Positions 1,406 through 15,691 of a stretch of 24,699 bases of DNA are shown piece after piece; the stretch's first letter is position 1; each line of letters begins with the position of its first letter. Below the pieces are notes generated by a model, which did no database searches, was not told the origin of the DNA, and saw only the letters and a program-made list of their open reading frames with translations. The translations under genes and the position numbers were made by a program. Source of the DNA: Clostridia bacterium (lineage in GTDB: Bacteria > Bacillota > Clostridia > Oscillospirales > Acutalibacteraceae); NCBI GenBank assembly GCA_017387165.1, contig JAFOFS010000250.1, forward strand, positions 1 through 24,699. Direction: 5' to 3'.

Positions 1406-2371
1406 TTATTCTTCGCCCGTTTCTTCTTCCGATTCGGGGACTTCTTCCCCCTCGGGAACGGATGGCTCGGTCGGCTCGACAGGGAAGGAATCCGGCTCGC
1501 GGATATAGTCGGTGGGGGTGAAGATGACCTGGTTATTTTCCTTGTTGTCGTCGGAGTAGGAGGAAATATCCAAAACGCCCTTGGCGTGCTTTCCGTAGTC
1601 GCTTAAGACCTGCGGCAGCGTTCCGGCAAACACGCGCAGCTCGTAGGTGAGGTTGCTGTCATCGCCCAATTTCACGCGGATCTGATGGTTCCACACCATC
1701 GTCAGATGGGTCAGGCTGGTCATATCGATCTCGCAGATGCCGGTGATCTGCTGCGTTCGGAGTTCGGTCAGCAGCTGCTGCAAAATGGCGGCGGTGCGCG
1801 GCTCCAGCGCCGCTTCGCCCAGCTTGCCGCCTGTCGTTTTCGCTCCGCGAACGTACAGGATGCGGTCGGGCGTGTCGGCGGTCATTTCGCGGTAGCCGAT
1901 GGTGTGCAGCGTATCGTCCAGCAGCGCCCAGCGTCCGTTATCGTAGACCGCGCAGACGGCGGTCTTTTCGGTCACCTCGATGACGAAGACGTCTGCCGAC
2001 GGGGTGGTGATCTTGACGCTCTTGAGATAGGGGCAGAGGGCCAGAATGTTTTGCTCGGCGGCCGATTTGCTGACCGTCATAAAATTCTGACCGACCTGCA
2101 GTCCCGATGCCGCGAGGATGGTTTCGGTGGGGAGGTGGTCGTTGCCCGACACGCGGATCTCCTTGATGCCGGTGCTGCCGACCGACACGCTTTGTCCGGT
2201 CTGCTGCATCAGCTCCTGCTCGGCGCGGCGCACCTTGGCCAGCGGATAGAAATGGATGATGAGCGCGACCACCACGAGGATCGCGACAAACAACGCGACC
2301 GTCGTCAGAAACCGACGCAGGCCGACGTTTTCTTTTTGATTTGGTTTTCGCGGAATGCGGGTGACGCTCAC
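1406..2371 (-). CDS. divIB: Cell division protein FtsQ/DivIB (321 aa, GTG start)
   Basis: Short basic N-terminus, one TM helix, POTRA domain (IKEIRVSGNDHL...ILAASGLQVGQN), acidic tail; directly upstream of ftsZ; RBS AAAAGGAAGTG. Confidence 0.88.
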   Translation of the reverse strand: MSVTRIPRKPNQKENVGLRRFLTTVALFVAILVVVALIIHFYPLAKVRRAEQELMQQTGQSVSVGSTGIKEIRVSGNDHLPTETILAASGLQVGQNFMTVSKSAAEQNILALCPYLKSVKITTPSADVFVIEVTEKTAVCAVYDNGRWALLDDTLHTIGYREMTADTPDRILYVRGAKTTGGKLGEAALEPRTAAILQQLLTELRTQQITGICEIDMTSLTHLTMVWNHQIRVKLGDDSNLTYELRVFAGTLPQVLSDYGKHAKGVLDISSYSDDNKENNQVIFTPTDYIREPDSFPVEPTEPSVPEGEEVPESEEETGEE

Positions 2372-2394
2372 GGTTTCACTTCCTTTTACGTTTT

Positions 2395-3654
2395 TTACGG
2401 ATCGACCCGTCGGATACGGGCGCCGATGGCGGAGAGTCCGCTCTCCGGATCGGCATAGCCGCGGTCGAGATGCTGCAATTCACCGATGGCGGAACGCCCC
2501 TCGGCAGCCAAAGCGGCGACCACCAGCGCAGCGCCGCCGCGCAGGTCGGTGCAATCCACCGCCGCGCCGGAAAGGGATTTGACCCCCTCGACCACCGCCA
2601 CGCGCCCTTCGGTCTTGATGCGAGCGCCCATACGAAGCAGCTCGCCGACGTATTTGTAACGGCATTCAAAGATGTTTTCGACGAACACCCCCGTGCCGTC
2701 AGCCACCGTAGCCGCCGCCAGCAGCGGCGCCGCCGCGTCGGTCGGAAAGCCGGGATACGGCATGGTGCGCAGGTAGGGGATACGTTTTAAGCGGCGCGGC
2801 GCCTTCAGGCGGACGCGGTCGGCGTACACCGACAGTTGACACCCCATTTCCGAGAAAAGCGGAAGAACGGTGTCGATATGCTGCGGACAGCAGGCGGTGA
2901 CCGTGCCGTCGCCTCCGGTCGCGGCAATCGCCGCCAAATAGGTGGCGGCTTCGATGCGATCGGGTATCACGGTGTGCTCTGCCGCGGCAAGACGGGGGAC
3001 GCCCTCGATGCGGATGGTACCGCCGTCTGTATGGATATGCGCTCCGCAGGCGGTGAGATACGCCGCGAGATCGGAAATTTCCGGTTCTCTTGCCGCGTTG
3101 AGCAGAGTGGTGACGCCGTCGGCGGTGACCGCCGCCAGCAGAATGTTTTCGGTTGCGCCGACGCTGGGGAAAGCGAGCGAAACGGTTTCTCCGTGAAACC
3201 GCCCGTCCGGCAGACAGGCGTGCAGCTGTCCCCGTTCCTCCGTAATGACCGCCCCCAGTTGCCGCAGCGCGGAGAGGTGGAGGTCGATGGGGCGAGGACC
3301 GAGTTCGCAACCGCCGGGGTAGGAGAGATGCGCTTCACCGAAGCGAGCCATCATCGCGCCCAAAAACACGATGGACGAGCGCATTCGCCGCATCAGGCGG
3401 TCGGAAATCACCGGCTTATCCGCTTGGTCGGGGCAGACGGTGACCGTCCTGCCCTCCTGCCGCACGCGGCAGCCGAAGTCGGTCAGAATTTCCAGGCAAC
3501 CGCCGACGTCGGAAAGCGGTGGTACGTTATGTAATACGCTTTCGCCGTCTGCGAGCAGCGTGGCGGCCAACAGCGGCAGCACCGCGTTTTTGGCGCCGTG
3601 CACGGCGATTTCGCCGCGCAGCGGATAGCCGCCGTCTATCAGTAATCGGGACAT
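2395..3654 (-). CDS. murA: UDP-N-acetylglucosamine 1-carboxyvinyltransferase MurA
   Basis: GAKNAVLP, MRSSI, catalytic Cys loop PGGCELGPRPIDLHL, SVGATEN, AAREPEI, PYPGFPTD, DLRGGA. ATG at 3654 preferred over GTG at 3660 from spacing to the AAGGAGG RBS. Confidence 0.97.
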   Translation of the reverse strand: MSRLLIDGGYPLRGEIAVHGAKNAVLPLLAATLLADGESVLHNVPPLSDVGGCLEILTDFGCRVRQEGRTVTVCPDQADKPVISDRLMRRMRSSIVFLGAMMARFGEAHLSYPGGCELGPRPIDLHLSALRQLGAVITEERGQLHACLPDGRFHGETVSLAFPSVGATENILLAAVTADGVTTLLNAAREPEISDLAAYLTACGAHIHTDGGTIRIEGVPRLAAAEHTVIPDRIEAATYLAAIAATGGDGTVTACCPQHIDTVLPLFSEMGCQLSVYADRVRLKAPRRLKRIPYLRTMPYPGFPTDAAAPLLAAATVADGTGVFVENIFECRYKYVGELLRMGARIKTEGRVAVVEGVKSLSGAAVDCTDLRGGAALVVAALAAEGRSAIGELQHLDRGYADPESGLSAIGARIRRVDP

Positions 3655-3696
3655 ACGCACTCCCTCCTTTGTCTGCGGAAATACTTCCGCACTGCC

Positions 3697-3725
3697 ACCA
3701 TATGACGGGCAGAGGAGAAGAGTGC
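3697..3725 (-). promoter_or_regulatory. Putative mother-cell sigma (SigK/SigE-type) promoter upstream of murA
   Basis: Minus strand GCAC-17 nt-CATATGGT matches the Bacillus SigK pattern AC-N16-18-CATAnnnT; lies in the murG-murA gap. Confidence 0.45.
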
Positions 3726-3730
3726 GAATT

Positions 3731-4852
3731 TTATTTGTTCAGCGCCTTTTCAATGACCTCCCAAATACGGTCGGAGGCGTCGAGAATGGCGTCCTTACGG
3801 GCGGCTTCGCCCATATTTCGCAGGGTAGCGGGATCGGCTAACAGGCGGTCGATGGCGGCGGCAAGCGTCTTGCCGTCCAGATCCTTTTCTTCGATGCAGA
3901 CCGCCGCGCCTTTGTTGACCAGCACCATCGCGTTGTGGAACTGGTGGTTCTCCGCAACGTAGGGGGAGGGAATCAGCACCGAGGCCACGCCGCAGGCAGG
4001 CAGTTCGCTGATGGTCATCGCGCCGCAGCGGCAGATGACCAGGTCGGCCGCCGCCATACAATCGATCATATTGTCGATATACGGGCGTACCGAGATGCCG
4101 TTCCTGTCGGTCGGGACACCCTTTTCCTGCAACGCCGCGACTGTATCGTCGTAGCCGTTTTTGCCGGTGCCGTGGATGTGTTGGCAGCGACCGCTCGCGG
4201 CGCTTTGCGCCAGCACCTCCACCATGGCCTCGTTGATCGGACGGGCGCCGAGACTGCCGCCGAAGGACAGCACCAGCGGACGGTCGTCCGCGCCGATGGC
4301 GGCTCTTGCCGCGGCTTTATCAACCGAAAGGAACTCCGCGCGGAGCGGATTGCCGGTCACCACCAGCGGACAGCTGCCGGACGGCATCTTGGCCTTGGAC
4401 GCTTCGGTTGGCAGGCAGATGGCGGTGGCGTATTTCGCCAGCATTTTGACGGTCACGCCCGGGAGGGCGTTGGATTCGTGCACCACCACGGGAATGCCCG
4501 TTTTGGCGGCGGCGCGCAGAATCGGGCCGCTGACGTAACCGCCGGTGCCGATGGCAATATCCGGCTTGAATTCTTTGAGTATTTTTTTGCAGGCGCTGCC
4601 GGCGGTCACTGCGTGCCACGCGGCGCTGACGTTATGGGCGATGCCTGCCGGTGTCAGCTGACGGGAAAAGCCTTTGACCGTGACCGTCTTGAGCGGGTAG
4701 CCTGCTTTCGGCACCAGCTCGGTTTCCATACGACCGGTCGCGCCGACAAACAGAAATTCCGCATCCGGCACACGGCGGCGAATATCCGCCGCGATCGCCA
4801 AGGCAGGGTTGATATGTCCGGCGGTACCGCCGCCTGTCATCAATACACGCAT
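3731..4852 (-). CDS. murG: Undecaprenyldiphospho-muramoylpentapeptide beta-N-acetylglucosaminyltransferase MurG
   Basis: GGGTAGHINP, GTGGYVSGP, HESNALPG, TGNPLR, GGSLGA, ENHQFHNA motifs. Confidence 0.98.
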   Translation of the reverse strand: MRVLMTGGGTAGHINPALAIAADIRRRVPDAEFLFVGATGRMETELVPKAGYPLKTVTVKGFSRQLTPAGIAHNVSAAWHAVTAGSACKKILKEFKPDIAIGTGGYVSGPILRAAAKTGIPVVVHESNALPGVTVKMLAKYATAICLPTEASKAKMPSGSCPLVVTGNPLRAEFLSVDKAAARAAIGADDRPLVLSFGGSLGARPINEAMVEVLAQSAASGRCQHIHGTGKNGYDDTVAALQEKGVPTDRNGISVRPYIDNMIDCMAAADLVICRCGAMTISELPACGVASVLIPSPYVAENHQFHNAMVLVNKGAAVCIEEKDLDGKTLAAAIDRLLADPATLRNMGEAARKDAILDASDRIWEVIEKALNK

Positions 4853-4856
4853 CGTT

Positions 4857-6053
4857 TTACTCCTTTTCGGGGGAATCCGGCCGCCGTGCGCTCTGCCGCG
4901 CCTGACGGGATACCGAGAGAATAACGCCCATTTGCATCATCATCATAACCAGCGACGAGCCGCCGTAGCTGAAGAACGGCAAGCCGATGCCGGTGTTGGG
5001 CATCAGGTTGCTGACCACCATGACGTTCAAGATGACCTGAACGCCGATCTGCGCGGCAATGCCGATGGACAGCATTGCGCCGAATTTATCGGCGGCGCGC
5101 ATACTGATGGTGATACCGCGCCACACCAGCAACCCAAACAAGATCAGGATAATCGCCGCGCCGACAAAGCCGAGCTCCTCGCATACGATAGCGAAGATGA
5201 AGTCGTTTTGCGGTTCGGGGAGGAACAGGTGCTTTTGCACCGAGTTGCCCAGACCGACGCCCATCAGACCGCCCGAGCCGATGGCGTACAGCGATTGCAC
5301 CGTCTGCCACGCCATATCGCGTCCTTCCGAGCCGGAGTTGAACACCTCCAGCGGACGCTGCCATACCGCGATGCGGTCGGCCTCGTAGCCGAATACGCCG
5401 ACCAGCAGCAGGATGGCCGCCACGCCGAGCGCCGCCACCACCGCCAGATAGGAGATACGCGTGCCGCCGACGAACATCATCACGGCGCCGATGGCGACGA
5501 TGAGGATGGTACCCGACAGGTGCGGCTCAAACAGCACCAGCACCGCCACGCAGCACAGCAACACCGCAAACGGCACGAAGCCGATGGTGAATTTTTTCAT
5601 CTGCTTGTGGTTGATGGAAATGAGGTGGGCAAACGCTAAAATAATGCCGAATTTCGCCAGCTCGGACGGCTGGAAGCCGCCGATGACCGGCAGGTTGATC
5701 CACCGCTGAATGCCGGTGGGGGAGGGAACGAAAAAGACGACGATGAGCAGCAACACCGACAGACCGAAGATCGGCCAGGTGAGGCGGTGCAGAATGTGGT
5801 AGTCAAAGAAGGACACCGCAAACATCGCGACGATGCCGATCAACGCGAAGATAAACTGCTTTTTGATATAGAAGAACGGATCGCCGTCGTAATGCGAGGC
5901 GTAGATGTAGCTGGCCGAGAACAGGCAGACCAGACCGATCGCCATCAGCAGCAACAGAATGAGGATAAAGGGCGCATCCAGCGTGCCGGCGGCACGGAAG
6001 ATGTGCTTCCACCATTTATAACGCGTTTTTTTGCTCGTCGTTTCGGAAGCCAT
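4857..6053 (-). CDS. ftsW: SEDS family peptidoglycan glycosyltransferase FtsW/SpoVE
   Basis: Polytopic membrane protein with RWI, FQPSELAK, EPHLSGT, AIGSGG, LPEPQNDFIFA and GIGLPFFSYGGSS; between mraY and murG. Confidence 0.95.
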   Translation of the reverse strand: MASETTSKKTRYKWWKHIFRAAGTLDAPFILILLLLMAIGLVCLFSASYIYASHYDGDPFFYIKKQFIFALIGIVAMFAVSFFDYHILHRLTWPIFGLSVLLLIVVFFVPSPTGIQRWINLPVIGGFQPSELAKFGIILAFAHLISINHKQMKKFTIGFVPFAVLLCCVAVLVLFEPHLSGTILIVAIGAVMMFVGGTRISYLAVVAALGVAAILLLVGVFGYEADRIAVWQRPLEVFNSGSEGRDMAWQTVQSLYAIGSGGLMGVGLGNSVQKHLFLPEPQNDFIFAIVCEELGFVGAAIILILFGLLVWRGITISMRAADKFGAMLSIGIAAQIGVQVILNVMVVSNLMPNTGIGLPFFSYGGSSLVMMMMQMGVILSVSRQARQSARRPDSPEKE

Positions 6054-6087
6054 CGGGCGTTCTCCTTTCGTCGGATTTTCGGATAGT

Positions 6088-7110
6088 TTACAGCCACATA
6101 AACAAAACGGTCAGCGCGGAAACCACCAGCGTGATCAGCGAGAAGGTGATGACGATGCGGTTTTCGTTCCAGCCGCCCATCTCGAAATGGTGATGGATGG
6201 GGGCCATACGGAACAGGCGCTTGCCGTGGGTCAGCTTGAAATAGCCGACCTGCAGGATGACCGACAGGGTTTCCATAATGTAGATGACGCCGAACGGCAC
6301 CAGCAGCAACGGATGACCGATGCCGAACGCAATGCCGCAAAGCGCACCGCCGATGTACAACGAGCCGGTATCGCCCATAAACACCTTCGCCGGATGGAGA
6401 TTGTACAGCAGGAAGCCCATCAGACCGCCGATCAGCGCCGCCGAGACCAGCCCTTGGTAAAACTCGCCCAGCAGACCGCAGACGGTGAGGAACGCGATAG
6501 CGGCAAACACCGTGACGGTGCCGCAAAGACCGTCCACGCCGTCGGTGATGTTGGTGGCGTTGGAGGCACCGGCGACGATGAAGATGACCACCGGAATGAT
6601 CCACAGACCGAAGTCCACCTCACCGAAGAACGGGAGATAGAAGGTGCGGGCGTCCGCGCCGCCGAAATACAGCAGCAGCGCATAGCCGAGGGACAGCACG
6701 AACTGCAAAAACAGCTTTTGCTTGTCGGTCAGACCGAGATTGCGTTTTTTGACGATCTTGATGTAGTCGTCCACAAAGCCGATGGCGCCGCAACCGACCG
6801 CCAGCAGAAGACCGCCGTACAGGCGCACCTGCGTCGCGGTGGGCTCCGCCAGAATGTTCCAGTTGAGGACGGTGCCGCAAAATACCAGCATCACGATCAC
6901 CGCCAGCAGCATACCGGCAATAAACAAAACGCCGCCCATGGTGGGGGTGCCCTGCTTGTTTTTGTGCCAGGACGGACCAATATCCAAAATGGTCTGTCCG
7001 AATTTCAGCTTGTGCAGCAGCGGAATGACCTTTTTGCCGAGCAGTGCCGCCGTCAAAAAGGCAACGAATGCCGCGGCAATAAGCGCCAACGGTTGTGTCA
7101 GATTGGGCAT
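6088..7110 (-). CDS. mraY: Phospho-N-acetylmuramoyl-pentapeptide transferase MraY
   Basis: KQGTPTMGG, GFVDDYIK, NATNITDGVDGL, PAKVFMGDTGS, FRMAPIHHHFE motifs. Confidence 0.98.
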   Translation of the reverse strand: MPNLTQPLALIAAAFVAFLTAALLGKKVIPLLHKLKFGQTILDIGPSWHKNKQGTPTMGGVLFIAGMLLAVIVMLVFCGTVLNWNILAEPTATQVRLYGGLLLAVGCGAIGFVDDYIKIVKKRNLGLTDKQKLFLQFVLSLGYALLLYFGGADARTFYLPFFGEVDFGLWIIPVVIFIVAGASNATNITDGVDGLCGTVTVFAAIAFLTVCGLLGEFYQGLVSAALIGGLMGFLLYNLHPAKVFMGDTGSLYIGGALCGIAFGIGHPLLLVPFGVIYIMETLSVILQVGYFKLTHGKRLFRMAPIHHHFEMGGWNENRIVITFSLITLVVSALTVLFMWL

Positions 7111-7114
7111 AGTG

Positions 7115-8542
7115 TTAATCCTTCTTTCCTGCCAGCACCTCAGCGACGATCTTGCGTTCGTCCAGCTCGACGGTGCGGTTTTTTAATATCTGATAGGTTT
7201 CGTGTCCTTTGCCTGCCAGCAGGACGGTGTCCCCTGCCTGCGCATGCTCAATCGCCCAGCGAACCGCTTGCTCGCGGTCGGGGAGGATGACCATCGGGGT
7301 ACCGTCGGGAATGCCGGGGAGTACCTCCTCAATGATGTCCATCGGCTCTTCCGAGCCGGGATTGTCCGAAGTCAGCACCAGCAGATCGGACAGACGGGCG
7401 GCGATTTCGCCCATGATCGGGCGCTTGGTGCGGTCGCGGTCGCCGGTGCAGCCGAACACGGTGATCAGCCGTCCGCGCAGACCGAGCTGAAGCGTCCGGC
7501 AGATCTTTTCCAGACCGTCGGGGGTGTGGGCGTAGTCCACCACCACCGTGAAATCGCGTCCCGTGGGAACGATCTCGGCGCGACCGTTGACTCCCGTCAC
7601 CTGCGAGATCGCCTCGCAGACCGTGTCAAACGGCAGGCCGACCGCCACCGCCGCGGCAATGGCGCCCAGCGCGTTGTTGACCGAGAATTCACCCGGCATC
7701 GAGAGGGACACCTCCGCGCGGCGGTTGCCGGCGCAGACGGTGAAATTCGAGCCGTCGGGGCGATAGCGGAGGTTTTCGGCGGTGAAATCCGCCTTCTCTC
7801 CGATGCAGAAGCGGTAGACGGGGCAGGTCAAGCCGTCGGTCAGACGGTCCACCCATGCGTCCTTTGCCTGTACCACCGCGCATTCGCTCTGTGCGAACAG
7901 CAGCTTCTTGGCGTCGCAGTATTCTTCCATCGTGTGATGATAATCCAAGTGATCCTGGGTCAGATTGGTGAACACACCGGCCGCAAAGGTGACCCCTGCC
8001 ACGCGGCGCTGATGCAGCGCGTGGGAGGATACCTCCATCACGACGTAGTCGCAGCCCTCGTCCGCCATCTCCGCAAACAGCTGCTGTAGCTCGTAGGCGG
8101 CAGGGGTGGTGGCGGAGGAGGACACCACACGCTGACCGATGAGGTTTTGAATGGTGCCGATGAGACCGACCTTGTGACCGCAGGCCTCCAGCATCTGCTT
8201 GAGCATATAGGTGGTGCTGGTCTTGCCGTTGGTGCCGGTGATGCCGATGATGTTCAGCCGTGAGGCCGGATGTCCGAACCAGTTGGCTGACAGCAGCGCC
8301 CACGCCTCACGGGTGTTGTCCACCCGAATCTGATGCTCCAGCCCGAGGTCACGCTCCACCATAACGGCGGCCGCGCCTGCGGCGAGCGCGTCGGCAGCAA
8401 AGCGGTGGGCATCCACCGATACGCCGTCGATGCAGACGAACAGGCAACCGGCGGTCACCTTGCGGGAGTCGCAGACCAGCGCGGTGATCTCCGGGTTTTC
8501 GCCGTAGGTTGCCACGCCGGCAAGCAGCTGCTGTAATTGCAT
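7115..8542 (-). CDS. murE: MurE-family Mur ligase, second tandem copy, with variant DNPG specificity motif (475 aa)
   Basis: GITGTNGKTST P-loop, MEVSSH, FTNLTQDHLDYH, DYAHTPD, GKGHETYQ; specificity motif reads SDNPGSE (DNPG at 7355-7366). Confidence 0.93.
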   Translation of the reverse strand: MQLQQLLAGVATYGENPEITALVCDSRKVTAGCLFVCIDGVSVDAHRFAADALAAGAAAVMVERDLGLEHQIRVDNTREAWALLSANWFGHPASRLNIIGITGTNGKTSTTYMLKQMLEACGHKVGLIGTIQNLIGQRVVSSSATTPAAYELQQLFAEMADEGCDYVVMEVSSHALHQRRVAGVTFAAGVFTNLTQDHLDYHHTMEEYCDAKKLLFAQSECAVVQAKDAWVDRLTDGLTCPVYRFCIGEKADFTAENLRYRPDGSNFTVCAGNRRAEVSLSMPGEFSVNNALGAIAAAVAVGLPFDTVCEAISQVTGVNGRAEIVPTGRDFTVVVDYAHTPDGLEKICRTLQLGLRGRLITVFGCTGDRDRTKRPIMGEIAARLSDLLVLTSDNPGSEEPMDIIEEVLPGIPDGTPMVILPDREQAVRWAIEHAQAGDTVLLAGKGHETYQILKNRTVELDERKIVAEVLAGKKD

Positions 8543-8546
8543 ACGG

Positions 8547-9974
8547 TCAATCCTTCTTTCTTTGTAATGCCTCCGTCACGATACGCCGCTCGTCAAGCGG
8601 CAGGACGGTATTTTTTACGATCTGCACGGTTTCGTGCCCTTTTCCTGCCAGCAAAACGGTATCTCCCGTCTTGGCTTGGGTCAGCACCCAGCGAATTGCC
8701 TCGGCGCGGTCGGGAATGACCGCCGTCGGCGTGCCGGGTGGGATGCCGCGCAGGATGTCGTCGATGATGTCGTCGGGCTGCTCCGAGCGGGGGTTATCCG
8801 AGGTCACCACCGTCAAGTCGGCGTATCGGGCGGCAATCGCCCCCATCTGCGGACGCTTGCCCTTGTCGCGGTCACCGCCGCAGCCAAACAGCACGAACAG
8901 GCGCCCGGTCAATCCGTGCTGCAGCGCCCGACAGATTTGTTCCAGCCCGTCGGGGGTGTGGGCGTAATCGATGAGCACGGTGAAATCGGTGTCGGTCGGC
9001 ACCACCTCGGCGCGTCCCTTGACGCCGCGCATATACGGCACGGCGCCGCAAACGGCGTCAAACGGCAAGCCGAGCGCCAACGCCGCGGCGATCGCCCCCA
9101 GCGCGTTGCTGACCGAAAATTCCCCGGGGATCGGCAACCGTACCCGTTGCTCGCGGTTGTCGGCGCAGACGGTGAATTCTACGCCGTCGGGGCGGTAGGA
9201 AACCGCTTTGGCGAAGACGTCGCCGCCCTCGCTTGAGGAGAACAAGCGCACGGGGCAGGGAAGCGACGCGGTCATACGGGCGGTCCACCGATCGCTTTTT
9301 TGCGCCACCGCGCAGTCGCTCTGTAAAAAGAGCAGCCGTTTGGCGTCGCAGTAGGCCTCCATCGTGCGGTGATAATCCAAATGATCTTGTGTCAGATTGG
9401 TAAAGATGCCGGCGGCGAAGCGGATGCCTGCCACCCGTTGCTGATGCAGCGCGTGGGAGGATACCTCCATCACCGCGAAATCACAGCCCTCGTCCGCCAT
9501 TTCCGCCAACAGCCGCTGCAGCTCGTAGGCGTCGGGGGTGGTGGAGGCGGAGGGAACGGTGCGATAGCCGATGCGATGGGCAACCGTGCCGATGAGGCCG
9601 ACGGTGTAGCCGCAGGCCTCCAGCATCTGCGCCAGCAGGTAGGTGGTGCTGGTCTTGCCGTTGGTGCCGGTCACGCCGACGACTCGCAGCCGCTCGGCAG
9701 GGCGACCGAACCAGTTGGCGGAGAGCAGCGCCCACGCGCGTCGCGTGTCGGGAACGAGAATTTGCTGCGGCAGACCGAGGTCCTTCCCGACCACCACCGC
9801 GGCTGCGCCGTTTGCCAGCGCCTCGGCGGCGAAGCGGTGTCCGTCGGTGTCTACGCCGTCGATACAGACGAACAGACAACCGGCGGTTACCGCACGGGAA
9901 TCACAGACGAGTGACGAAATCCAAACATCCTGTCGGACGGCGGCCACGCCGTCGAGTAATTCCCGTAAATTCAT
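8547..9974 (-). CDS. murE: UDP-MurNAc-L-Ala-D-Glu:meso-diaminopimelate ligase MurE, first tandem copy, canonical DNPR motif (475 aa)
   Basis: GVTGTNGKTST, MEVSSH, FTNLTQDHLDYH, DYAHTPD, FGCGGDRDKGKRP, SDNPRSE (DNPR at 8787-8798). Confidence 0.95.
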   Translation of the reverse strand: MNLRELLDGVAAVRQDVWISSLVCDSRAVTAGCLFVCIDGVDTDGHRFAAEALANGAAAVVVGKDLGLPQQILVPDTRRAWALLSANWFGRPAERLRVVGVTGTNGKTSTTYLLAQMLEACGYTVGLIGTVAHRIGYRTVPSASTTPDAYELQRLLAEMADEGCDFAVMEVSSHALHQQRVAGIRFAAGIFTNLTQDHLDYHRTMEAYCDAKRLLFLQSDCAVAQKSDRWTARMTASLPCPVRLFSSSEGGDVFAKAVSYRPDGVEFTVCADNREQRVRLPIPGEFSVSNALGAIAAALALGLPFDAVCGAVPYMRGVKGRAEVVPTDTDFTVLIDYAHTPDGLEQICRALQHGLTGRLFVLFGCGGDRDKGKRPQMGAIAARYADLTVVTSDNPRSEQPDDIIDDILRGIPPGTPTAVIPDRAEAIRWVLTQAKTGDTVLLAGKGHETVQIVKNTVLPLDERRIVTEALQRKKD

Positions 9975-9989
9975 CGATAAGCCCCCTGT

Positions 9990-12236
9990 TCAGTCGTCTA
10001 CGTCCAGATACGAGAAGTGTACGTTTACGACCGAACCCAGCGGCATCTCCGTGCCTTCCGGCCATTCCTGCGACGAACAGATCGCCGTGCCGTGTTCGAC
10101 GCTCAGACCGGATACGATCAGGTTGATGTCGGCGGCGTAGGCGGCGTAGGTCGCCTGGGTAAGCGACATTCCGATAAAGTTGGGCACGACGGTGTTTTCG
10201 CTGAGCGATTCACTGTCGGTGTACAGCACGATGGTGCCCTCTTTCGGAATGGTGGCACCCGCGGCGGGCACCTGGTCCAAAACCGTCTGTCCGTCACCGA
10301 CGACGGTGTAGTCCAGCCCGGCGTTGTTGAGCAAGGTCTTGGCGGTGTCCAGTTCCTTGTCGGTGACGTTGGGGGCGGTGGTGGACAGATTGGCAAGTTC
10401 TTTTTCGGTATACAACGGCTCGATGCCGAGATAGGGGAGGGTATCCTCGATGACCTGTCGGCAGACCGGCGCTGCGACGTAGCTGCCGTGGACGTTGGAG
10501 CCGTGCGGCTCGTCGATCATGGCCAACACCGCAATTTCGGGGTTGTTGCCGGGGGCAAAGGTACCAAACGACGCCCACACGCTCTCTTTGGTTTCGGTGT
10601 CGTCGGCGGTACCGGATTTACCGGCCACGCGGTAGCCGGCGACGTAGACGTTCTTGCAGCCGCCGCCGTCCACCGCCGCCTGCATCATTTCGTTGACCTG
10701 AAGAGCGGCGGAAGCGGAGATGACCTGACGCTTGACGGTGGTCTTCGTTTCGGACACGATGTTTTGATTGGCGTCCAGCACACGCTGCACGACGTACGGC
10801 TGCACCAGATAGCCGCCGTTGGCGACCGCCGAGAGGGCGGTGATCATTTGAATGGGGGTGACCTTAAAGGTCTGACCCATCGACTGGCAGGCTACCTCCA
10901 GCGGTGTCATATTGCTGCCGTGATACAGGCTTTCGGACGGTGCCGCCTCGCCCAGCATATCGATGCCGGTGCGCTCGGTGAAGCCGAAGCCGACAAAGTA
11001 TTTGAAGTACAGGCTGCCGCCGATCGCCATACCCAGCTTGGCAAACGCCGGGTTGCAGGAATGGGACAGCGTTTCCGCAAAGGTTTGGGAACCGTGACCC
11101 ACCAGATAGTGGCAGTTGATGATATCCGGGCCGATGGCCAGATAACCGGGGCAGTAGGTGGTGTCGCCGGTCACCTGAATGCCGGCGTCCACGGCCATGG
11201 CGGAGGTGAACACCTTAAACACCGAGCCCGGCTCGTAGTATTCGGAAACCGCCTTGTTGGTCCATTGCTTCTGCAGGGCGGCGGTGCGCGCCGCGGCGCG
11301 TTCTTCCTCGTCCTGAATCTGCTGGATGGCCTCCAGCGCGGCGGTGTCGTACACGGTGAACGGTTCGTTGGGATCATAGTCGCCCGAAACCGCGCAGGCG
11401 AGGATGGCGCCGGTGTTGACGTTCATCACCAAACAGATGCCGCGGTTGGTCGCCTGCGAATTGGTGATCGCTTCGTCCAGATATTTTTCCGCGAAGTGTT
11501 GGATAGTGGAATCGATGGTCAGCACCAGACTGTTGCCGTCCTCCGCGTCCACCGTCTTTTCATACGTCAGGGCGATGGACATATCGCCGCCAACGCCGTT
11601 TTGCGCCGTGACGATGCGTCCGGGGATACCGGCCAGCACCTCGTCGTATTGCGCCTCCAGACCGTACAGGCCGTAGTAGTCGGCACCGCAGAAGCCGATT
11701 ACCGTCGAGGCGAGCGAGCCTTGCGGATACGAACGGGTGTAGTCGGAAATGATGCGGAAAACGCCGGCTCCGGAAAGCTCCTTGCTTTCCACCCACTCGA
11801 TGAATTCCTCCACCAGCGGACGCTCGATCTTTTGTACCACGACGGCGTATTGCGAAGTGGTGTCGGTGGCACGGTTGTACAGGCGGTCGCGGTCTACCTT
11901 AAACATCACCGACAGCTCGTCGGCGATCGTCTCGGCGGTGTCCTCGTCGGGGATGTTGCTCGGGTCCATAATGACCGTCCATACCTGCTCCGATTCCGCC
12001 AGAACGTTTAAGTTGCAGTCGTAGATGGTGCCGCGGGAGGCATCGACCAGCGTGTCGCTCATCTGCTGCGAAACGGCAAGAGACGACCAATAATCGTGCT
12101 GGAATACCTGCACGTACAGCAGGCGTCCCATAATGCAAAATACCGTCAGCGCCATGACGACGAGAACCCAGATACTGCGGTTCCACATCGAGCGGGTCGG
12201 CAGCTTGGTGGTGGCGGTGCGCTTCTCGTTTGCCAT
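9990..12236 (-). CDS. spoVD: Class B penicillin-binding protein, FtsI/SpoVD family, with two C-terminal PASTA domains (748 aa)
   Basis: N-terminal TM, RGTIYD dimerisation motif, SxxK (GSVFK), SxN (SCN), KSG; two PASTA repeats. Start MANEKR at 12236 has AAAAGGAGG RBS. SpoVD vs FtsI is inferred from the upstream SigE-like promoter. Confidence 0.88.
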   Translation of the reverse strand: MANEKRTATTKLPTRSMWNRSIWVLVVMALTVFCIMGRLLYVQVFQHDYWSSLAVSQQMSDTLVDASRGTIYDCNLNVLAESEQVWTVIMDPSNIPDEDTAETIADELSVMFKVDRDRLYNRATDTTSQYAVVVQKIERPLVEEFIEWVESKELSGAGVFRIISDYTRSYPQGSLASTVIGFCGADYYGLYGLEAQYDEVLAGIPGRIVTAQNGVGGDMSIALTYEKTVDAEDGNSLVLTIDSTIQHFAEKYLDEAITNSQATNRGICLVMNVNTGAILACAVSGDYDPNEPFTVYDTAALEAIQQIQDEEERAAARTAALQKQWTNKAVSEYYEPGSVFKVFTSAMAVDAGIQVTGDTTYCPGYLAIGPDIINCHYLVGHGSQTFAETLSHSCNPAFAKLGMAIGGSLYFKYFVGFGFTERTGIDMLGEAAPSESLYHGSNMTPLEVACQSMGQTFKVTPIQMITALSAVANGGYLVQPYVVQRVLDANQNIVSETKTTVKRQVISASAALQVNEMMQAAVDGGGCKNVYVAGYRVAGKSGTADDTETKESVWASFGTFAPGNNPEIAVLAMIDEPHGSNVHGSYVAAPVCRQVIEDTLPYLGIEPLYTEKELANLSTTAPNVTDKELDTAKTLLNNAGLDYTVVGDGQTVLDQVPAAGATIPKEGTIVLYTDSESLSENTVVPNFIGMSLTQATYAAYAADINLIVSGLSVEHGTAICSSQEWPEGTEMPLGSVVNVHFSYLDVDD

Positions 12237-12263
12237 GGTCGAATCCTCCTTTTCATGATCTCT

Positions 12264-12304
12264 AAAAATAGCAAAAAGGTCCAAGACTATCCTCATCTCG
12301 GACC
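12264..12304 (-). terminator. Terminator-like hairpin between ftsL and the PBP gene
   Basis: Minus strand GGTCCGAGA-9 nt loop-TCTTGGACC (9 bp with one G-U pair) followed by TTTTTGCTATTTTT. Confidence 0.55.
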
Positions 12305-12334
12305 TTCGGGTCGCATAGGCAGGCGTCTGTCACT

Positions 12335-12362
12335 ATTGTATGACACCTGCGGGCGAATATTA
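12335..12362 (-). promoter_or_regulatory. Putative SigE-type sporulation promoter upstream of the PBP gene
   Basis: Minus strand TAATATT-13 nt-CATACAAT; the -10 equals the Bacillus SigE consensus CATAcaaT and the -35 resembles TCATATT. Confidence 0.55.
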
Positions 12363-12827
12363 CGAAAACAAGCCGACGACACCCTTCCAAAGGCCGGTAA
12401 AGAAATTTTCACCGCCGTCGGCGGGCAACTCGGCGCGGTCAACCGAATCCACCGAGAAATAGTGGATTTGATTGGGCTCGACCTTGACCATCCCGTGCTC
12501 CTTGGCGTACGCCTCGACGTTGTCGGGACTGGCGACTTCCGCGATCTCACCCTTCAGGCGGACGTTTTCGCTCTGCAGGATCTGCGTCTGCTCCCGTGCC
12601 TCCTAAATGCTCGTGTTCAGCTCGGTGAGACGCACACGGGCGAAGATGGCGAGCAATACGAAGGAAAGCGCCACCGCGGTGCAGGCAACGGTCGCCAACG
12701 TATTCAGAGTGGATTGGACCCGACGCTGGCGCTTGTTGGCTCTGACCGCTTTTTTATTCGGTTTTAACGCGACGACGTTCGGCTTTTTTTCCTCGAACAT
12801 CGACAGGTCGTATGCGTGCTGTGCCAT
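12360..12827 (-). pseudogene. ftsL: FtsL-like cell division protein interrupted by one in-frame TAG at codon 75 (155 aa if read through)
   Basis: Between rsmH and the PBP gene; AAAGGAGTG RBS; basic N-terminus plus TM (74 aa), TAG at 12603-12605, then the same frame stays open for 80 codons (EAREQTQILQSENVRLKGEIAEVASPDNVEAYAKEHGMVKVEPNQIHYFSV...FFTGLWKGVVGLFS) to TAA at 12360-12362. Confidence 0.85.
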
Positions 12828-12842
12828 CGGGTCTCACTCCTT

Positions 12843-13781
12843 TCAATCGTTGTATGGCTCGTGTCGCTTGATGATGCAGCGGAGCTTGGCGCTTCGGCTG
12901 CGTGGATTTTCGGCTTCCTCCTGCGGCGTGGCGACGATCGGTTTACGGATCGCCGGTTCGGCAGCCGGAGTGCGTCCGCAGACGCAGACGGGAAATTGCG
13001 GAGGGCAGATGCAGCCCTGCCGCCACGCGGCGAAGCGTTGCTTGACGATGCGATCTTCCAGCGAGTGGAAGGTGATGATCGCCAACCGTCCGCCTTCCTT
13101 CAGGCAACCGAACGCGGTGTCCAGCGCTTCGGACAGGCAATCCAACTCGCCGTTGACGGCGATGCGGATCGCTTGGAAGGATTTACGGGCAGGGTGACCG
13201 GCGCGCCGTACGGCGGCAGGTACGCTCTCGCAGATGATATCCGACAGCTCGAAGGTGGTGCGGATGGGCTTGTCCTTTCGCGCCTCCACAATGTTGCGAG
13301 CAATCTGTCGGGAAAATTTTTCTTCACCGTATTCCCAGAGGATACGGGCGATCTCACGCTCGTCGGCGGTGTTGATCAGATCGGCGGCGGTCGGGCCGCT
13401 TTGACTCATGCGCATATCCAGCGGTGCGTCCATATGGAACGAGAAGCCGCGGTTGGCGGTATCCAGCTGGTGGGAGGACACGCCGATGTCCAGCAGAATG
13501 CCGTCCACGCCGTCCACGCCGTGCGCGGCCAACACCTTGTCCATCTCGGTGAAATTGGAATGCACCACCGTGGCCGGCAGACCGGCTAACCGCTTTCCTG
13601 CCTCCGCAATGGCGTCGGGATCGCGGTCAAGAGAATAAAGATGACCGGTGGTCAGTCGGGACGCGATCTCAAAGGAATGTCCGCCGCCGCCGGCCGTGCC
13701 GTCCACGTACAGGCCGTCCGGTCGGACGTCCAACGCGTCGATGGTCGGCTGAAGCAGCACCGGCAAATGATAGGCGCCCAT
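12843..13781 (-). CDS. rsmH: 16S rRNA m4C1402 methyltransferase RsmH (MraW)
   Basis: HLPVLL, DGTAGGGGHS, DIGVSSHQLD, RGFSF, PLDMRM, FQAIRIAVN, ITFHSLEDR, NPRSRSAKLR; TGATG overlap with mraZ. Confidence 0.98.
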   Translation of the reverse strand: MGAYHLPVLLQPTIDALDVRPDGLYVDGTAGGGGHSFEIASRLTTGHLYSLDRDPDAIAEAGKRLAGLPATVVHSNFTEMDKVLAAHGVDGVDGILLDIGVSSHQLDTANRGFSFHMDAPLDMRMSQSGPTAADLINTADEREIARILWEYGEEKFSRQIARNIVEARKDKPIRTTFELSDIICESVPAAVRRAGHPARKSFQAIRIAVNGELDCLSEALDTAFGCLKEGGRLAIITFHSLEDRIVKQRFAAWRQGCICPPQFPVCVCGRTPAAEPAIRKPIVATPQEEAENPRSRSAKLRCIIKRHEPYND

Positions 13782-14200
13782 CAGAACAGCGCCACCGCCA
13801 GCGCGGTTTCGATCTCGTCGTCGTCCATCTCTTCCATTTCCTGCTCGTACATGGTCGGGTTCCAGATCTCCGCACGGGTGCCGGCACCGATGACCAGCGC
13901 TTCTTTCTCGATGGAAGCGTACTCAAGCAGCTCTTTTTTCAGATTGATACGACCCTGCGCGTCGATGTCAACGTCGCAGGCGTGGGATGCCAGATAACGG
14001 GACAGCTTGCGGACCTCTTTGGTCATCGGCTGATCGCTCAGCTTGGCCATCCGCTCGTTCCACTCGGCAAGAGAATACAGGCAGATGCAGTGATCCATCA
14101 CCGCCGCCGCGACGAACGATTCGCCGAGCTCTGCGCGGAACTTCGCCGGGACGAACAAGCGGCCCTTGGCGTCTACGTTGTGTTGATATTTACCGAGCAT
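13781..14200 (-). CDS. mraZ: Division/cell wall cluster transcriptional repressor MraZ
   Basis: Two SpoVT/AbrB-type repeats (VDAKGRLFVP; IDAQGRINL), GAGTRAEIW; GAAAGGAGG RBS; first gene of the dcw cluster. Confidence 0.97.
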   Translation of the reverse strand: MLGKYQHNVDAKGRLFVPAKFRAELGESFVAAAVMDHCICLYSLAEWNERMAKLSDQPMTKEVRKLSRYLASHACDVDIDAQGRINLKKELLEYASIEKEALVIGAGTRAEIWNPTMYEQEMEEMDDDEIETALAVALF

Positions 14201-14244
14201 CTGTCTGCCTCCTTTCGGTTTGGTGTGGTCGGGTGGATTGCAGC

Positions 14245-14309
14245 GGCTTCACACGGGATTCACAGCGTTTTCACATCCGTGTTGAAAAGTTGGTTGAAAC
14301 TGTTGAAAA
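14245..14309. repeat. Phased short repeats in the mraZ 5' leader
   Basis: TTCACA at 14248, 14259 and 14270 (exact 11-bp period), then GTTGAAA at 14281, 14293 and 14302. Confidence 0.7.
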
Positions 14310-14310
14310 T

Positions 14311-14350
14311 TCCCCACTTCTAAACATTTCGCACCACTTTGCACCCTTAT
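14311..14350 (-). promoter_or_regulatory. Putative MraZ binding boxes
   Basis: Four minus-strand decamers with 10-bp period just downstream of the -10: ATAAGGGTGC, AAAGTGGTGC, GAAATGTTTA, GAAGTGGGGA. These resemble the GTGG-type repeats bound by MraZ upstream of mraZ in Firmicutes and Mollicutes. Confidence 0.7.
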
Positions 14351-14356
14351 GGGACT

Positions 14357-14385
14357 ATTATATACGCATTTAATAAAAATTGCAA
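14357..14385 (-). promoter_or_regulatory. Sigma-A promoter of the dcw (mraZ) operon
   Basis: Minus strand TTGCAA-17 nt-TATAAT. Confidence 0.8.
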
Positions 14386-14455
14386 GGGGTTTTTCGAAAA
14401 AAAGCCCTTGCAATCAACTGGAAAATTTTCACAAAATTTGACACTGTTTTTCGGT

Positions 14456-14500
14456 AAAAAGAACAAGGACTCGACCGCCCCTTTCGGGGAAGTCGAGTCC
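14456..14500 (-). terminator. Intrinsic terminator ending the Rnf-like/hydrolase operon
   Basis: Minus strand GGACTCGAC-TT-CCCC-GAAA-GGGG-CG-GTCGAGTCC followed by TTGTTCTTTTT, about 18 nt after the stop at 14519. Confidence 0.8.
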
Positions 14501-14518
14501 GAATTGCGTTTGTTGAAA

Positions 14519-15691
14519 TCAGCCTTTCAAGGCGGCGAAATCGTAGCTGCCGTTGGCGGCATACACCACCACGGGACCGTCTCCGACCGCTTTCAGCATG
14601 GCCTTGATCTGGTTGGCGTTTTGTCCGTTCACGTTCAGCCACGGCAGCAGCGCGGGGGCGCTTTCGCCCAGCTCATCGGCGCGGAAGCGGATCTTCTCCA
14701 GCATCGCCTGCGTGCCGTTTTGCGGCAGCATCGGGGAGAGGAAATCGCCGCCGAACTTGAGCGGATTGTCGCTTCCGTAAATGGCGGTGTTGCTGCCGGT
14801 GGCGGATTCGCCTGCGCAGCAGAAGCTGAGCTCCATACCGGTCAAAGCGGTTTTCGCCTCGCTGACAAAGGTCTGCAGCACGGCGATCTCCGGCTTCTGC
14901 TGATTGGTCAGCGAGCTGTCGAAGAATGCCAGCTGACGCTGGAACGGGAACTGGACGCCGTCGTAGATGAGGGCGGTGAAGCCGACCTCCTGCAGCTCCT
15001 TGCCCAAGCCGACGAGATACTGACGGGCGCCGGGCTTGTACGGGTTGAGCCAGGTTTTGCCGCCCTTGTCGTAGGCGTTGTCCAGCCAATCGGTCATGGT
15101 GCCTTCGGCGTAATATTCGATGATGGCATCCATCGAGCGATAGGTGCGGTCATAAAAGGCGTACAGATAGCCGACCGCCAGCATATCCTGCTCCTCGCAG
15201 ACGGCAAGAAGCGCTTTGAGCTGCGCTTTGCTGACGGCGGTGGCGTGCACGCTGCCGGCTTTTTTGACGGTGTCGCTTTCCGCTTGGAAATACACCCGTC
15301 CGACCGTGTCCTTCAGCTCCAGCACCACGCCGTTGTAGCCGGCGGCTTTGGCGGCGGTCACCGTCTGCGCAAAGGCAGCGGTATCCCCCAGCGCCGACGG
15401 CGGCAGATAAACGGCACGCAGACCCGACAGGGATTTTTGCGGAGCGGGGGTGACGGTGGTCTGGGTGTTGGTCGTCGAAGCGGTGCTGTCGGTCGAGGTG
15501 GTGGAGGAGGGTGTGCTGACGTCGGGGGTGGTCTGCGGACGATTCAGCAGCCATTTACCGGCGAGCACGCCGAGCGCCACGATGCCGATACAGGCAACTA
15601 CGGCGCCGAGTGTTTTCCAGATCGGGGAACGCCGGCGGTAAGGATTGCGGCGCCGATAGGTGGGGCGCCGTTTGATTTTACGCGGTTTCAT
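14519..15691 (-). CDS. Membrane-anchored putative glycoside hydrolase-like TIM-barrel protein (DUF4015/GHL10-like, 390 aa)
   Basis: Arg-rich N-terminus, one TM helix, Ser/Thr-rich linker, then LRAVYL, GYNGVVLELKDTVGRVYF, WLNPY...ARQYL and GFTALIYDGVQFP, resembling DUF4015/GHL10 motifs; AAAGGAGG RBS overlaps the upstream stop. Confidence 0.65.
   Translation of the reverse strand: MKPRKIKRRPTYRRRNPYRRRSPIWKTLGAVVACIGIVALGVLAGKWLLNRPQTTPDVSTPSSTTSTDSTASTTNTQTTVTPAPQKSLSGLRAVYLPPSALGDTAAFAQTVTAAKAAGYNGVVLELKDTVGRVYFQAESDTVKKAGSVHATAVSKAQLKALLAVCEEQDMLAVGYLYAFYDRTYRSMDAIIEYYAEGTMTDWLDNAYDKGGKTWLNPYKPGARQYLVGLGKELQEVGFTALIYDGVQFPFQRQLAFFDSSLTNQQKPEIAVLQTFVSEAKTALTGMELSFCCAGESATGSNTAIYGSDNPLKFGGDFLSPMLPQNGTQAMLEKIRFRADELGESAPALLPWLNVNGQNANQIKAMLKAVGDGPVVVYAANGSYDFAALKG

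Follow-up and report, generated by a model that had tools for sequence, protein, structure and literature searches.

The residue at position 3 of the peptidoglycan stem peptide governs the chemistry of cross-linking and sets the specificity of endolysins and bacteriocins. It also governs host sensing, in which NOD1 recognises fragments of the diaminopimelic acid (DAP) type. Two position-3 ligase activities can reportedly coexist in one organism: biochemical work of the 1970s on Lysinibacillus (Bacillus) sphaericus is said to have found a vegetative Lys-adding activity and a sporulation-induced DAP-adding activity. Here we describe a tandem pair of genes for the position-3 ligase MurE, which we call copy 1 and copy 2, on a contig of an uncultured Clostridia bacterium (JAFOFS010000250.1). 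The stretch analyzed, referred to as the window, is the whole 24.7-kb contig, part of a 1.57-Mb metagenome-assembled genome (MAG), G000, that is 87% complete with 7% contamination. The organism is detected in bovine-gut metagenomes.

In DAP-adding MurEs, the Arg and Asn of a DNPR motif hydrogen-bond the free carboxylate of DAP, and in the MurE of Staphylococcus aureus an Arg-to-Ala replacement is said to discriminate electrostatically against this substrate (PMC3829189). Most Ruminococcaceae and Oscillospiraceae of the gut have a wall type listed as unknown (table, PMC11382707). Our literature search returned nothing on a MurE with DNPG, on MurE R451A, or on the murE of L. sphaericus. Copy 1 carries the full DAP-type signature, and copy 2 has DNPG in place of DNPR. 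In the reading we favor, with a probability of about 0.5, copy 2 is a working MurE that no longer prefers meso-DAP and probably adds Lys or Orn instead; expressed together with the DAP-type copy, it would yield two kinds of stem peptide.

A young tandem duplication of murE

The sequence-only reading of the window had described two collinear MurE genes of 475 aa, about two-thirds identical, without giving their strand. Both lie head to tail on the minus strand, and their products align without gaps at 67% identity (318/475). Each protein carries the three Mur-ligase domains (PF01225, PF08245, and PF02875) and passes the cut-off of the murE model TIGR01085 (514.8 bits for copy 1 and 517.8 for copy 2; cut-off 257.3). 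The pair sits in a minus-strand division and cell wall (dcw) cluster in the order mraZ, rsmH, ftsL, a class B penicillin-binding protein (PBP) gene, murE copy 1, murE copy 2, mraY, ftsW/spoVE, murG, and murA.

The duplication is young and has been retained by one small clade of uncultured Clostridia from the ruminant gut. Among 40 relatives, one has tandem murE genes: G004, a 98%-complete MAG from goat colon that represents a sister species in the same genus. Its copy 1 reads DNPR and its copy 2 DNPG, with 74% and 83% identity, respectively, to their counterparts in the window. DNPR was present in 26/26 single-copy relatives in which the MurE locus was read. On a Logan contig from a third lineage, a copy 1-type gene ends and, 5 nt further on, a copy 2-type gene begins. 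Within the best 120 hits from a collection of 5.8 billion proteins, DNPG was confined to the window's own cluster and a G004-type cluster, and in the latter all 11 members combine FGCTGDRDRTK with DNPG. Contigs from three bovine-gut metagenome runs, belonging to three studies, span the junction between the copies, and the codons for Thr366 and Gly396 are free of variants.

The sequence-only reading had allowed for the Arg-to-Gly change being a private mutation or a sequencing error missing from orthologs. We reject both explanations because the change is shared with G004, with 11/11 members of the G004-type cluster, and with the three metagenome runs. An assembly chimera is rejected as well, since the tandem arrangement recurs in G004, in the third-lineage contig, and in the independent metagenome contigs.

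As that reading had also suggested, we built a MurE phylogeny. On the maximum-likelihood tree, the duplication postdates the divergence from G003, a sister lineage with a single copy, and predates that of G000 from G004, with supports of 100/97 to 100/100 and a copy 2 clade that spans both species. Because the gene order in single-copy relatives is PBP-murE-mraY, the pair reflects a simple in-place tandem duplication of murE. Copy 2 occupies the slot that murF usually takes, and we considered it as a stand-in for murF. This idea was rejected, as the relatives have PBP-murE-mraY without murF at that place. In this genus murF lies away from the dcw locus; in G000 it is paired with ddl on a different contig (C236).

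In this murF-ddl region of G000 (contig C236, L181 124-2961), MurF is itself divergent. The 540-aa protein scores 229 bits against a TIGR01143 cut-off of 288.6, with a match that spans model positions 67-367 only, and ddl follows it. Neither the G000 MurF nor the family model, used as queries, found an ortholog of this divergent MurF in the 98%-complete G004.

The comparison of G000 with G004 gave dN/dS values of 0.18 (copy 1) and 0.16 (copy 2); therefore, both copies are maintained as proteins under purifying selection. These values bear on whether copy 2 might be a decaying or non-catalytic duplicate, a reading we hold to be very improbable. Copy 2 does lack a residue that DAP-type MurEs are considered to need. 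Yet at least two species preserve its 475-aa frame uninterrupted, its rate equals that of the neighbouring essential genes (83% identity between G000 and G004, within the 81-96% of the adjacent dcw genes), and its P-loop, DHLDYH motif, carbamyl-Lys context, and GKGHE motif are all preserved.

Two replacements in the amino-acid-binding loops

Aligned to Escherichia coli MurE (1E8C), both copies retain TGTNGKTS, QDHLDYH, CDAK (the carbamyl-Lys context), and GKGHET, so the catalytic and ATP-binding features of copy 2 appear to have been kept. Two features of meso-DAP MurE (EC 6.3.2.13) separate the pair: the Arg of DNPR and the third-position Gly of GCGGDRD are both present in copy 1 and both missing from copy 2. 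In this alignment, Gly396 of copy 2 corresponds to R416 and Thr366 to G386. Direct checks of the coordinates bore out the motif differences given by the sequence-only reading, namely GCGGDRD, DNPR, and GHETVQ in copy 1 against GCTGDRD and DNPG in copy 2, with codon CGC against GGC (Table 1). The GHETVQ variant is private to the window's lineage; copy 2 reads GHETYQ, and so does copy 1 of the sister species.

Nine changes are fixed in the copy 2 clade at positions that are still ancestral in copy 1 and the sister group (G45A, G251A, V312I, I335V, G366T, R396G, I407V, V419I, and I420L). The only non-conservative ones among them are G366T and R396G, and these fall in the two loops of the amino-acid site. 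Since each sits at the C-terminal end of one of two neighbouring strands, residues 366 and 396 probably lie close together. Ten changes are fixed in copy 1, none of them at a known DAP contact. With R396G, the Arg that contacts the distal (D-centre) carboxylate of meso-DAP is lost, and G366T alters the GCGGDRD loop. A copy 2 modified in this way would add a diamino acid that has no distal carboxylate. L-Lys would be the most likely choice because it is one LysA step from DAP, and L-Orn would be possible.

To place these replacements in a wider context, we compared 232 MurEs. Residue 366 is Gly in 137/153 Arg-bearing enzymes compared with 1/79 Arg-less enzymes, the latter being a set retrieved by DNPG/DNPA patterns and so not a random sample. 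On a tree built without columns 366 and 396, the Arg/non-Arg state switched at least nine times. Six supported independent contrasts could be drawn, in which residue 366 moves with residue 396 in approximately 5.8 and never in the opposite direction (sign test, p ~0.03); one of the six is the window pair itself, and without it 5/5 run in the same direction. G366T and R396G in copy 2 thus repeat the pair of changes seen in independent lineages that dropped the DAP-binding Arg.

When 401 Clostridia genomes were scanned for the pattern T-x-DNP[A/G], it occurred in G000, as DNPG, in nine genomes of two families, as DNPA, and in no others. A reversed-pattern control over the same genomes gave zero hits. 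We also scanned one genome per species, 185,579 species in all, for h-h-T-x-DNPG-x-E-x-P and fetched 80 loci among the matches listed. As 73 of these 80 proved to be MurE-family open reading frames with DNPG, we rejected the idea that DNPG is a unique motif. The DNPG MurEs among the matches listed come from a large Clostridia group with a TGTKGKTT P-loop and GSVGERT, from actinobacterial and planctomycete groups, and from Cohnella, Lacticaseibacillus, and others.

The nearest independent parallel to copy 2, at 41% identity, comes from the MAG 'Bacillota bacterium AS21ysBPME_335' (L120/L173), where a DAP-lineage MurE carries FGCPGDRDRTK together with DNPG. This assembly holds four MurE-family genes above the cut-off and therefore may be mixed.

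Several observations weigh against a shift in specificity. Copy 2 keeps the other DAP contacts, D393, N394, R369, and E448. Both copies exceed the cut-off of NF001126, the 'DAP ligase' equivalog, and copy 2 is the higher-scoring of the two (Table 1). Against NF010628, the model for S. aureus-type L-Lys MurE, both fall below the cut-off of 536 bits, with 334.4 for copy 2 and 313.5 for copy 1. An A409R replacement in S. aureus MurE brought no gain of DAP activity (PMC3829189), and the Thermotoga maritima enzyme adds L- and D-Lys although it has DDPR (PMC9434261). The motif is suggestive of specificity, not decisive. The pattern-based choice of Arg-less enzymes belongs on the same side. So do the evolutionary rates: the faster-evolving copy is copy 1 (stem branch 0.19 versus 0.098 for copy 2 on the maximum-likelihood tree; 74% versus 83% identity between G000 and G004), unlike the classic pattern for a new function. 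Finally, a Fem-type bridge enzyme, a marker of Lys-type walls, was not found in G000 or G004, an absence that is uninformative.

Taken at face value, the conserved contacts, the NF001126 scores, and the evidence that specificity is not fixed by the motif alone would fit a copy 2 that is still a meso-DAP ligase. It would then be redundant or raise the enzyme dose, and the two copies might differ in kinetics or in how readily they are inhibited. We regard this as somewhat unlikely. Arg396 is invariant in 139/139 close DNPR relatives and the equivalent Arg in 153/153 sampled DNPR MurEs, and its loss was fixed jointly with G366T, a pair typical of Arg-less MurEs. Moreover, plain redundancy seldom lasts across species under a dN/dS of 0.16. 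A copy 2 that has moved away from meso-DAP remains the reading we prefer.

A bolder version, which we consider unlikely, is that a change of chemotype is in progress. Here the two substitutions G366T and R396G would have produced a non-DAP (Lys or Orn) MurE that has since become the main enzyme, under the tighter constraint, with constraint on the DAP copy loosening. If true, the pair would be a natural minimal map of the determinants of MurE specificity and would mark a route by which Gram-positive position-3 chemistry can switch. Because the copies are 67% identical and copy 2 has only two radical fixed differences, they offer a clean test of MurE amino-acid specificity; the change made in S. 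aureus, which did not confer DAP use, was the reverse one.

We also looked at the supply of the two candidate substrates. A LysA-like decarboxylase common to G000, G003, and G004 scores just below the curated cut-off (268 versus 297.9 bits; in G000, contig C250, L186 1177-2460), and two further genomes, G008 and G001, have canonical LysA at 444-472 bits. A search for DapF gave matches in G003 and G004 alone, within open frames of approximately 1350 aa. The lysine/DAP pathway thus varies within the genus. As these LysA-like and DapF patterns are shared with the single-copy G003, they do not track the duplication. Use of the two copies may nevertheless be split by substrate pools.

Operon layout and sporulation context

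The spacers between the PBP gene, copy 1, copy 2, and mraY are 15, 4, and 4 nt, and the ribosome-binding site of copy 2 lies inside copy 1 (Table 1). In simple pattern scans, no terminator-like or promoter-like site was found between the two copies, and no sigma-A, E, F/G, or K-like pattern was found inside copy 1. The two copies thus appear translationally coupled within a single transcription unit. Given the 4-nt spacer and the lack of promoter or terminator patterns between the copies, any promoter upstream of the PBP gene would drive both. Such coupling means that both UDP-MurNAc-tripeptides are probably made together, in proportions that would depend on enzyme kinetics and substrate pools, not on separate promoters.

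This layout bears directly on the proposal of the sequence-only reading, a developmental two-ligase switch in which the spore cortex receives DAP stems from the DNPR copy and the vegetative wall receives Lys or Orn stems from the DNPG copy, as in L. sphaericus. Part of that proposal stands. The two ligases do differ at the Arg that binds the DAP carboxylate, and the difference is conserved, under purifying selection, and part of a two-site signature. The SigE-like promoter upstream of the SpoVD-like PBP gene is also real, in the sense of a pattern conserved in G000, G004, and G003. Sporulation genes are present, with SpoIVA and SpoIIGA in G000 and Spo0A in G004, G003, and G008, although Spo0A was not found in the 87%-complete G000. 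In addition, copy 1 evolves approximately twice as fast as copy 2 and the neighbouring genes, as expected of a gene in part-time use.

However, a cortex role for the DNPR copy, argued from its place just after the SigE-like promoter, is not supported, as no promoter-like or terminator-like site was found to separate the copies. The promoters upstream of mraZ and the PBP gene would both express the pair as a whole, so that the arrangement offers no support for separate control. Furthermore, the putatively spore-forming relatives G003 and G008 have a single MurE with DNPR. We therefore judge a developmental switch to be improbable and favor the co-expression of a DAP-type and a shifted MurE. The only candidate RNA run gave a single 254-nt contig inside copy 2, too little for expression timing.

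Two further observations concern the region upstream of copy 1. Between the SigE-like promoter and the PBP coding region, a terminator-like hairpin of 13 bp with a T-run (12275-12307, minus strand) is conserved in G000, G004, and G003. With a promoter leading into a terminator-like segment, the PBP-murE-murE-mraY unit may be subject to attenuation or have a structured 5' leader. Because the annotated PBP start (ATG 12296) falls inside the hairpin, the true start may be farther downstream. In the ftsL region (12360-12827, minus strand), tblastn with X at an in-frame TAG aligns all 155 aa, with 75% identity to G004 and 58% to G003.

Table 1. Positions in the window of the murE pair, its motifs, the flanking genes, and the putative control sites.
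Feature	Position	Strand	Remarks
murE copy 1 (P0001, 475 aa, DAP-type signature)	8547..9974	-	NF001126 546 bits; 74% identity to G004 ortholog
murE copy 2 (P0002, 475 aa, without the DAP-binding Arg)	7115..8542	-	NF001126 574 bits; 83% identity to G004 ortholog; dN/dS 0.16
DNPR motif, copy 1	8787..8798	-	Arg396 codon CGC 8787-8789; aligns with E. coli MurE D413-R416
GCGGDRD loop, copy 1	8865..8885	-	Gly366 = E. coli G386; Arg369 = E. coli R389
GHETVQ, copy 1	8622-8639	-	coordinates checked directly
DNPG motif, copy 2	7355..7366	-	Gly396 codon GGC 7355-7357; GGC also in G004
GCTGDRD loop, copy 2	7433..7453	-	Thr366 in place of Gly
Spacer CCGT (4 nt), TGA of copy 1 to ATG of copy 2	8543..8546	-	AAGGA ribosome-binding site of copy 2 within the 3' end of copy 1
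Class B PBP, two PASTA domains, SpoVD/PBP2B-like	9990..12296	-	15 nt upstream of copy 1
mraY	6088..7110	-	4 nt downstream of copy 2
SigE-like promoter pattern ATATT-N13-CATACAAT upstream of the PBP gene	12335..12360	-	conserved in G000, G004, and G003; pattern match only
Sigma-70-like promoter pattern TTGCAA-17-TATAAT upstream of mraZ	14357..14385	-	sole such site on the minus strand within 2300-14600

Comparison with described MurE systems

Genomes with two MurEs are common, and the window pair is distinctive by its youth, its tandem coupling, and the minimal changes in its pocket. Each of the five DNPG-bearing genomes tested has at least two MurEs. In the four of these in which the motif of the second MurE was read, it is Arg-bearing (DNPR or DNSR), and one copy adjoins murF in three. 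A second, distant MurE match also occurs in 5/40 order-level relatives. The window pair adds to the evidence that two-MurE genomes, possibly with mixed or switchable stem peptides, are frequent in uncultured Bacillota. Automatic annotation labels all these enzymes 'DAP ligase', including Arg-less MurEs that are the only one in their genome.

The three-domain architecture of the meso-DAP MurEs of E. coli and Mycobacterium tuberculosis (2WTZ; models NF001126 and TIGR01085) is shared by both copies. No DAP-binding motif is missing from copy 1, whereas copy 2 has Gly for E. coli R416 and Thr for E. coli G386. The resemblance of copy 2 to the L-Lys MurE of S. aureus (4C12/4C13; NF010628) lies in the small residue that replaces the Arg, in that enzyme as DNPA. 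The two differ in their P-loops, TGTNGKT in copy 2 and TGTKGKT in S. aureus, and copy 2 arose by one recent duplication from a DAP-type enzyme.

Closer to home, the DNPA MurEs of two other Clostridia families, which belong to the DAP lineage, have GCNGDRD or GAAGDRD in the loop and still score above the NF001126 cut-off; such an enzyme is the sole MurE in 5/5 genomes tested. The sole MurE of the Eubacterium limosum group (for example, WP_038351173.1) and that of a second Clostridia family have lost both the Arg and the loop Gly, like copy 2. In contrast to copy 2, to which they are approximately 40% identical, these enzymes have Ala instead of Gly and no second MurE in the genome. E. limosum carries L-Orn at position 3. 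Non-DAP wall types, including B2-alpha, are listed for Eubacterium (PMC11382707). The MurE of T. maritima (4BUB, DDPR) shows that the choice of the position-3 residue depends on pocket context and substrate pools; unlike copy 2, it keeps the Arg, yet it adds both isomers of Lys in vivo (PMC9434261).

Two kinds of paired system come nearest to the window. The two position-3 ligase activities that L. sphaericus reportedly has within one spore-former find a parallel in the two MurE genes of the window organism, but the activities there are said to be separately timed, whereas the genes in G000 are coupled in one operon.

The other kind is formed by old second MurE paralogs in further Clostridia and Bacillota, which have TGTKGKTT, GSVGERTxxR, and DNPG, often adjoin a gene for an Asp/Glu racemase, and are accompanied by a DNPR or DNSR MurE beside murF. 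In three unrelated Clostridia MAGs (L089 2552-4776, L078 2238-4594, and L076 417-2559), the old DNPG MurE gene overlaps a preceding gene for an Asp/Glu racemase (PF01177); the L089 and L078 genomes have their second MurE elsewhere, beside murF, with DNSR in the L089 genome. As in the window, one member of each old pair bears the Arg and the other does not. However, those pairs are ancient (30-40% identical), unlinked, and different throughout the pocket, whereas the window pair is tandem, 67% identical, and set apart by two radical changes in the pocket.

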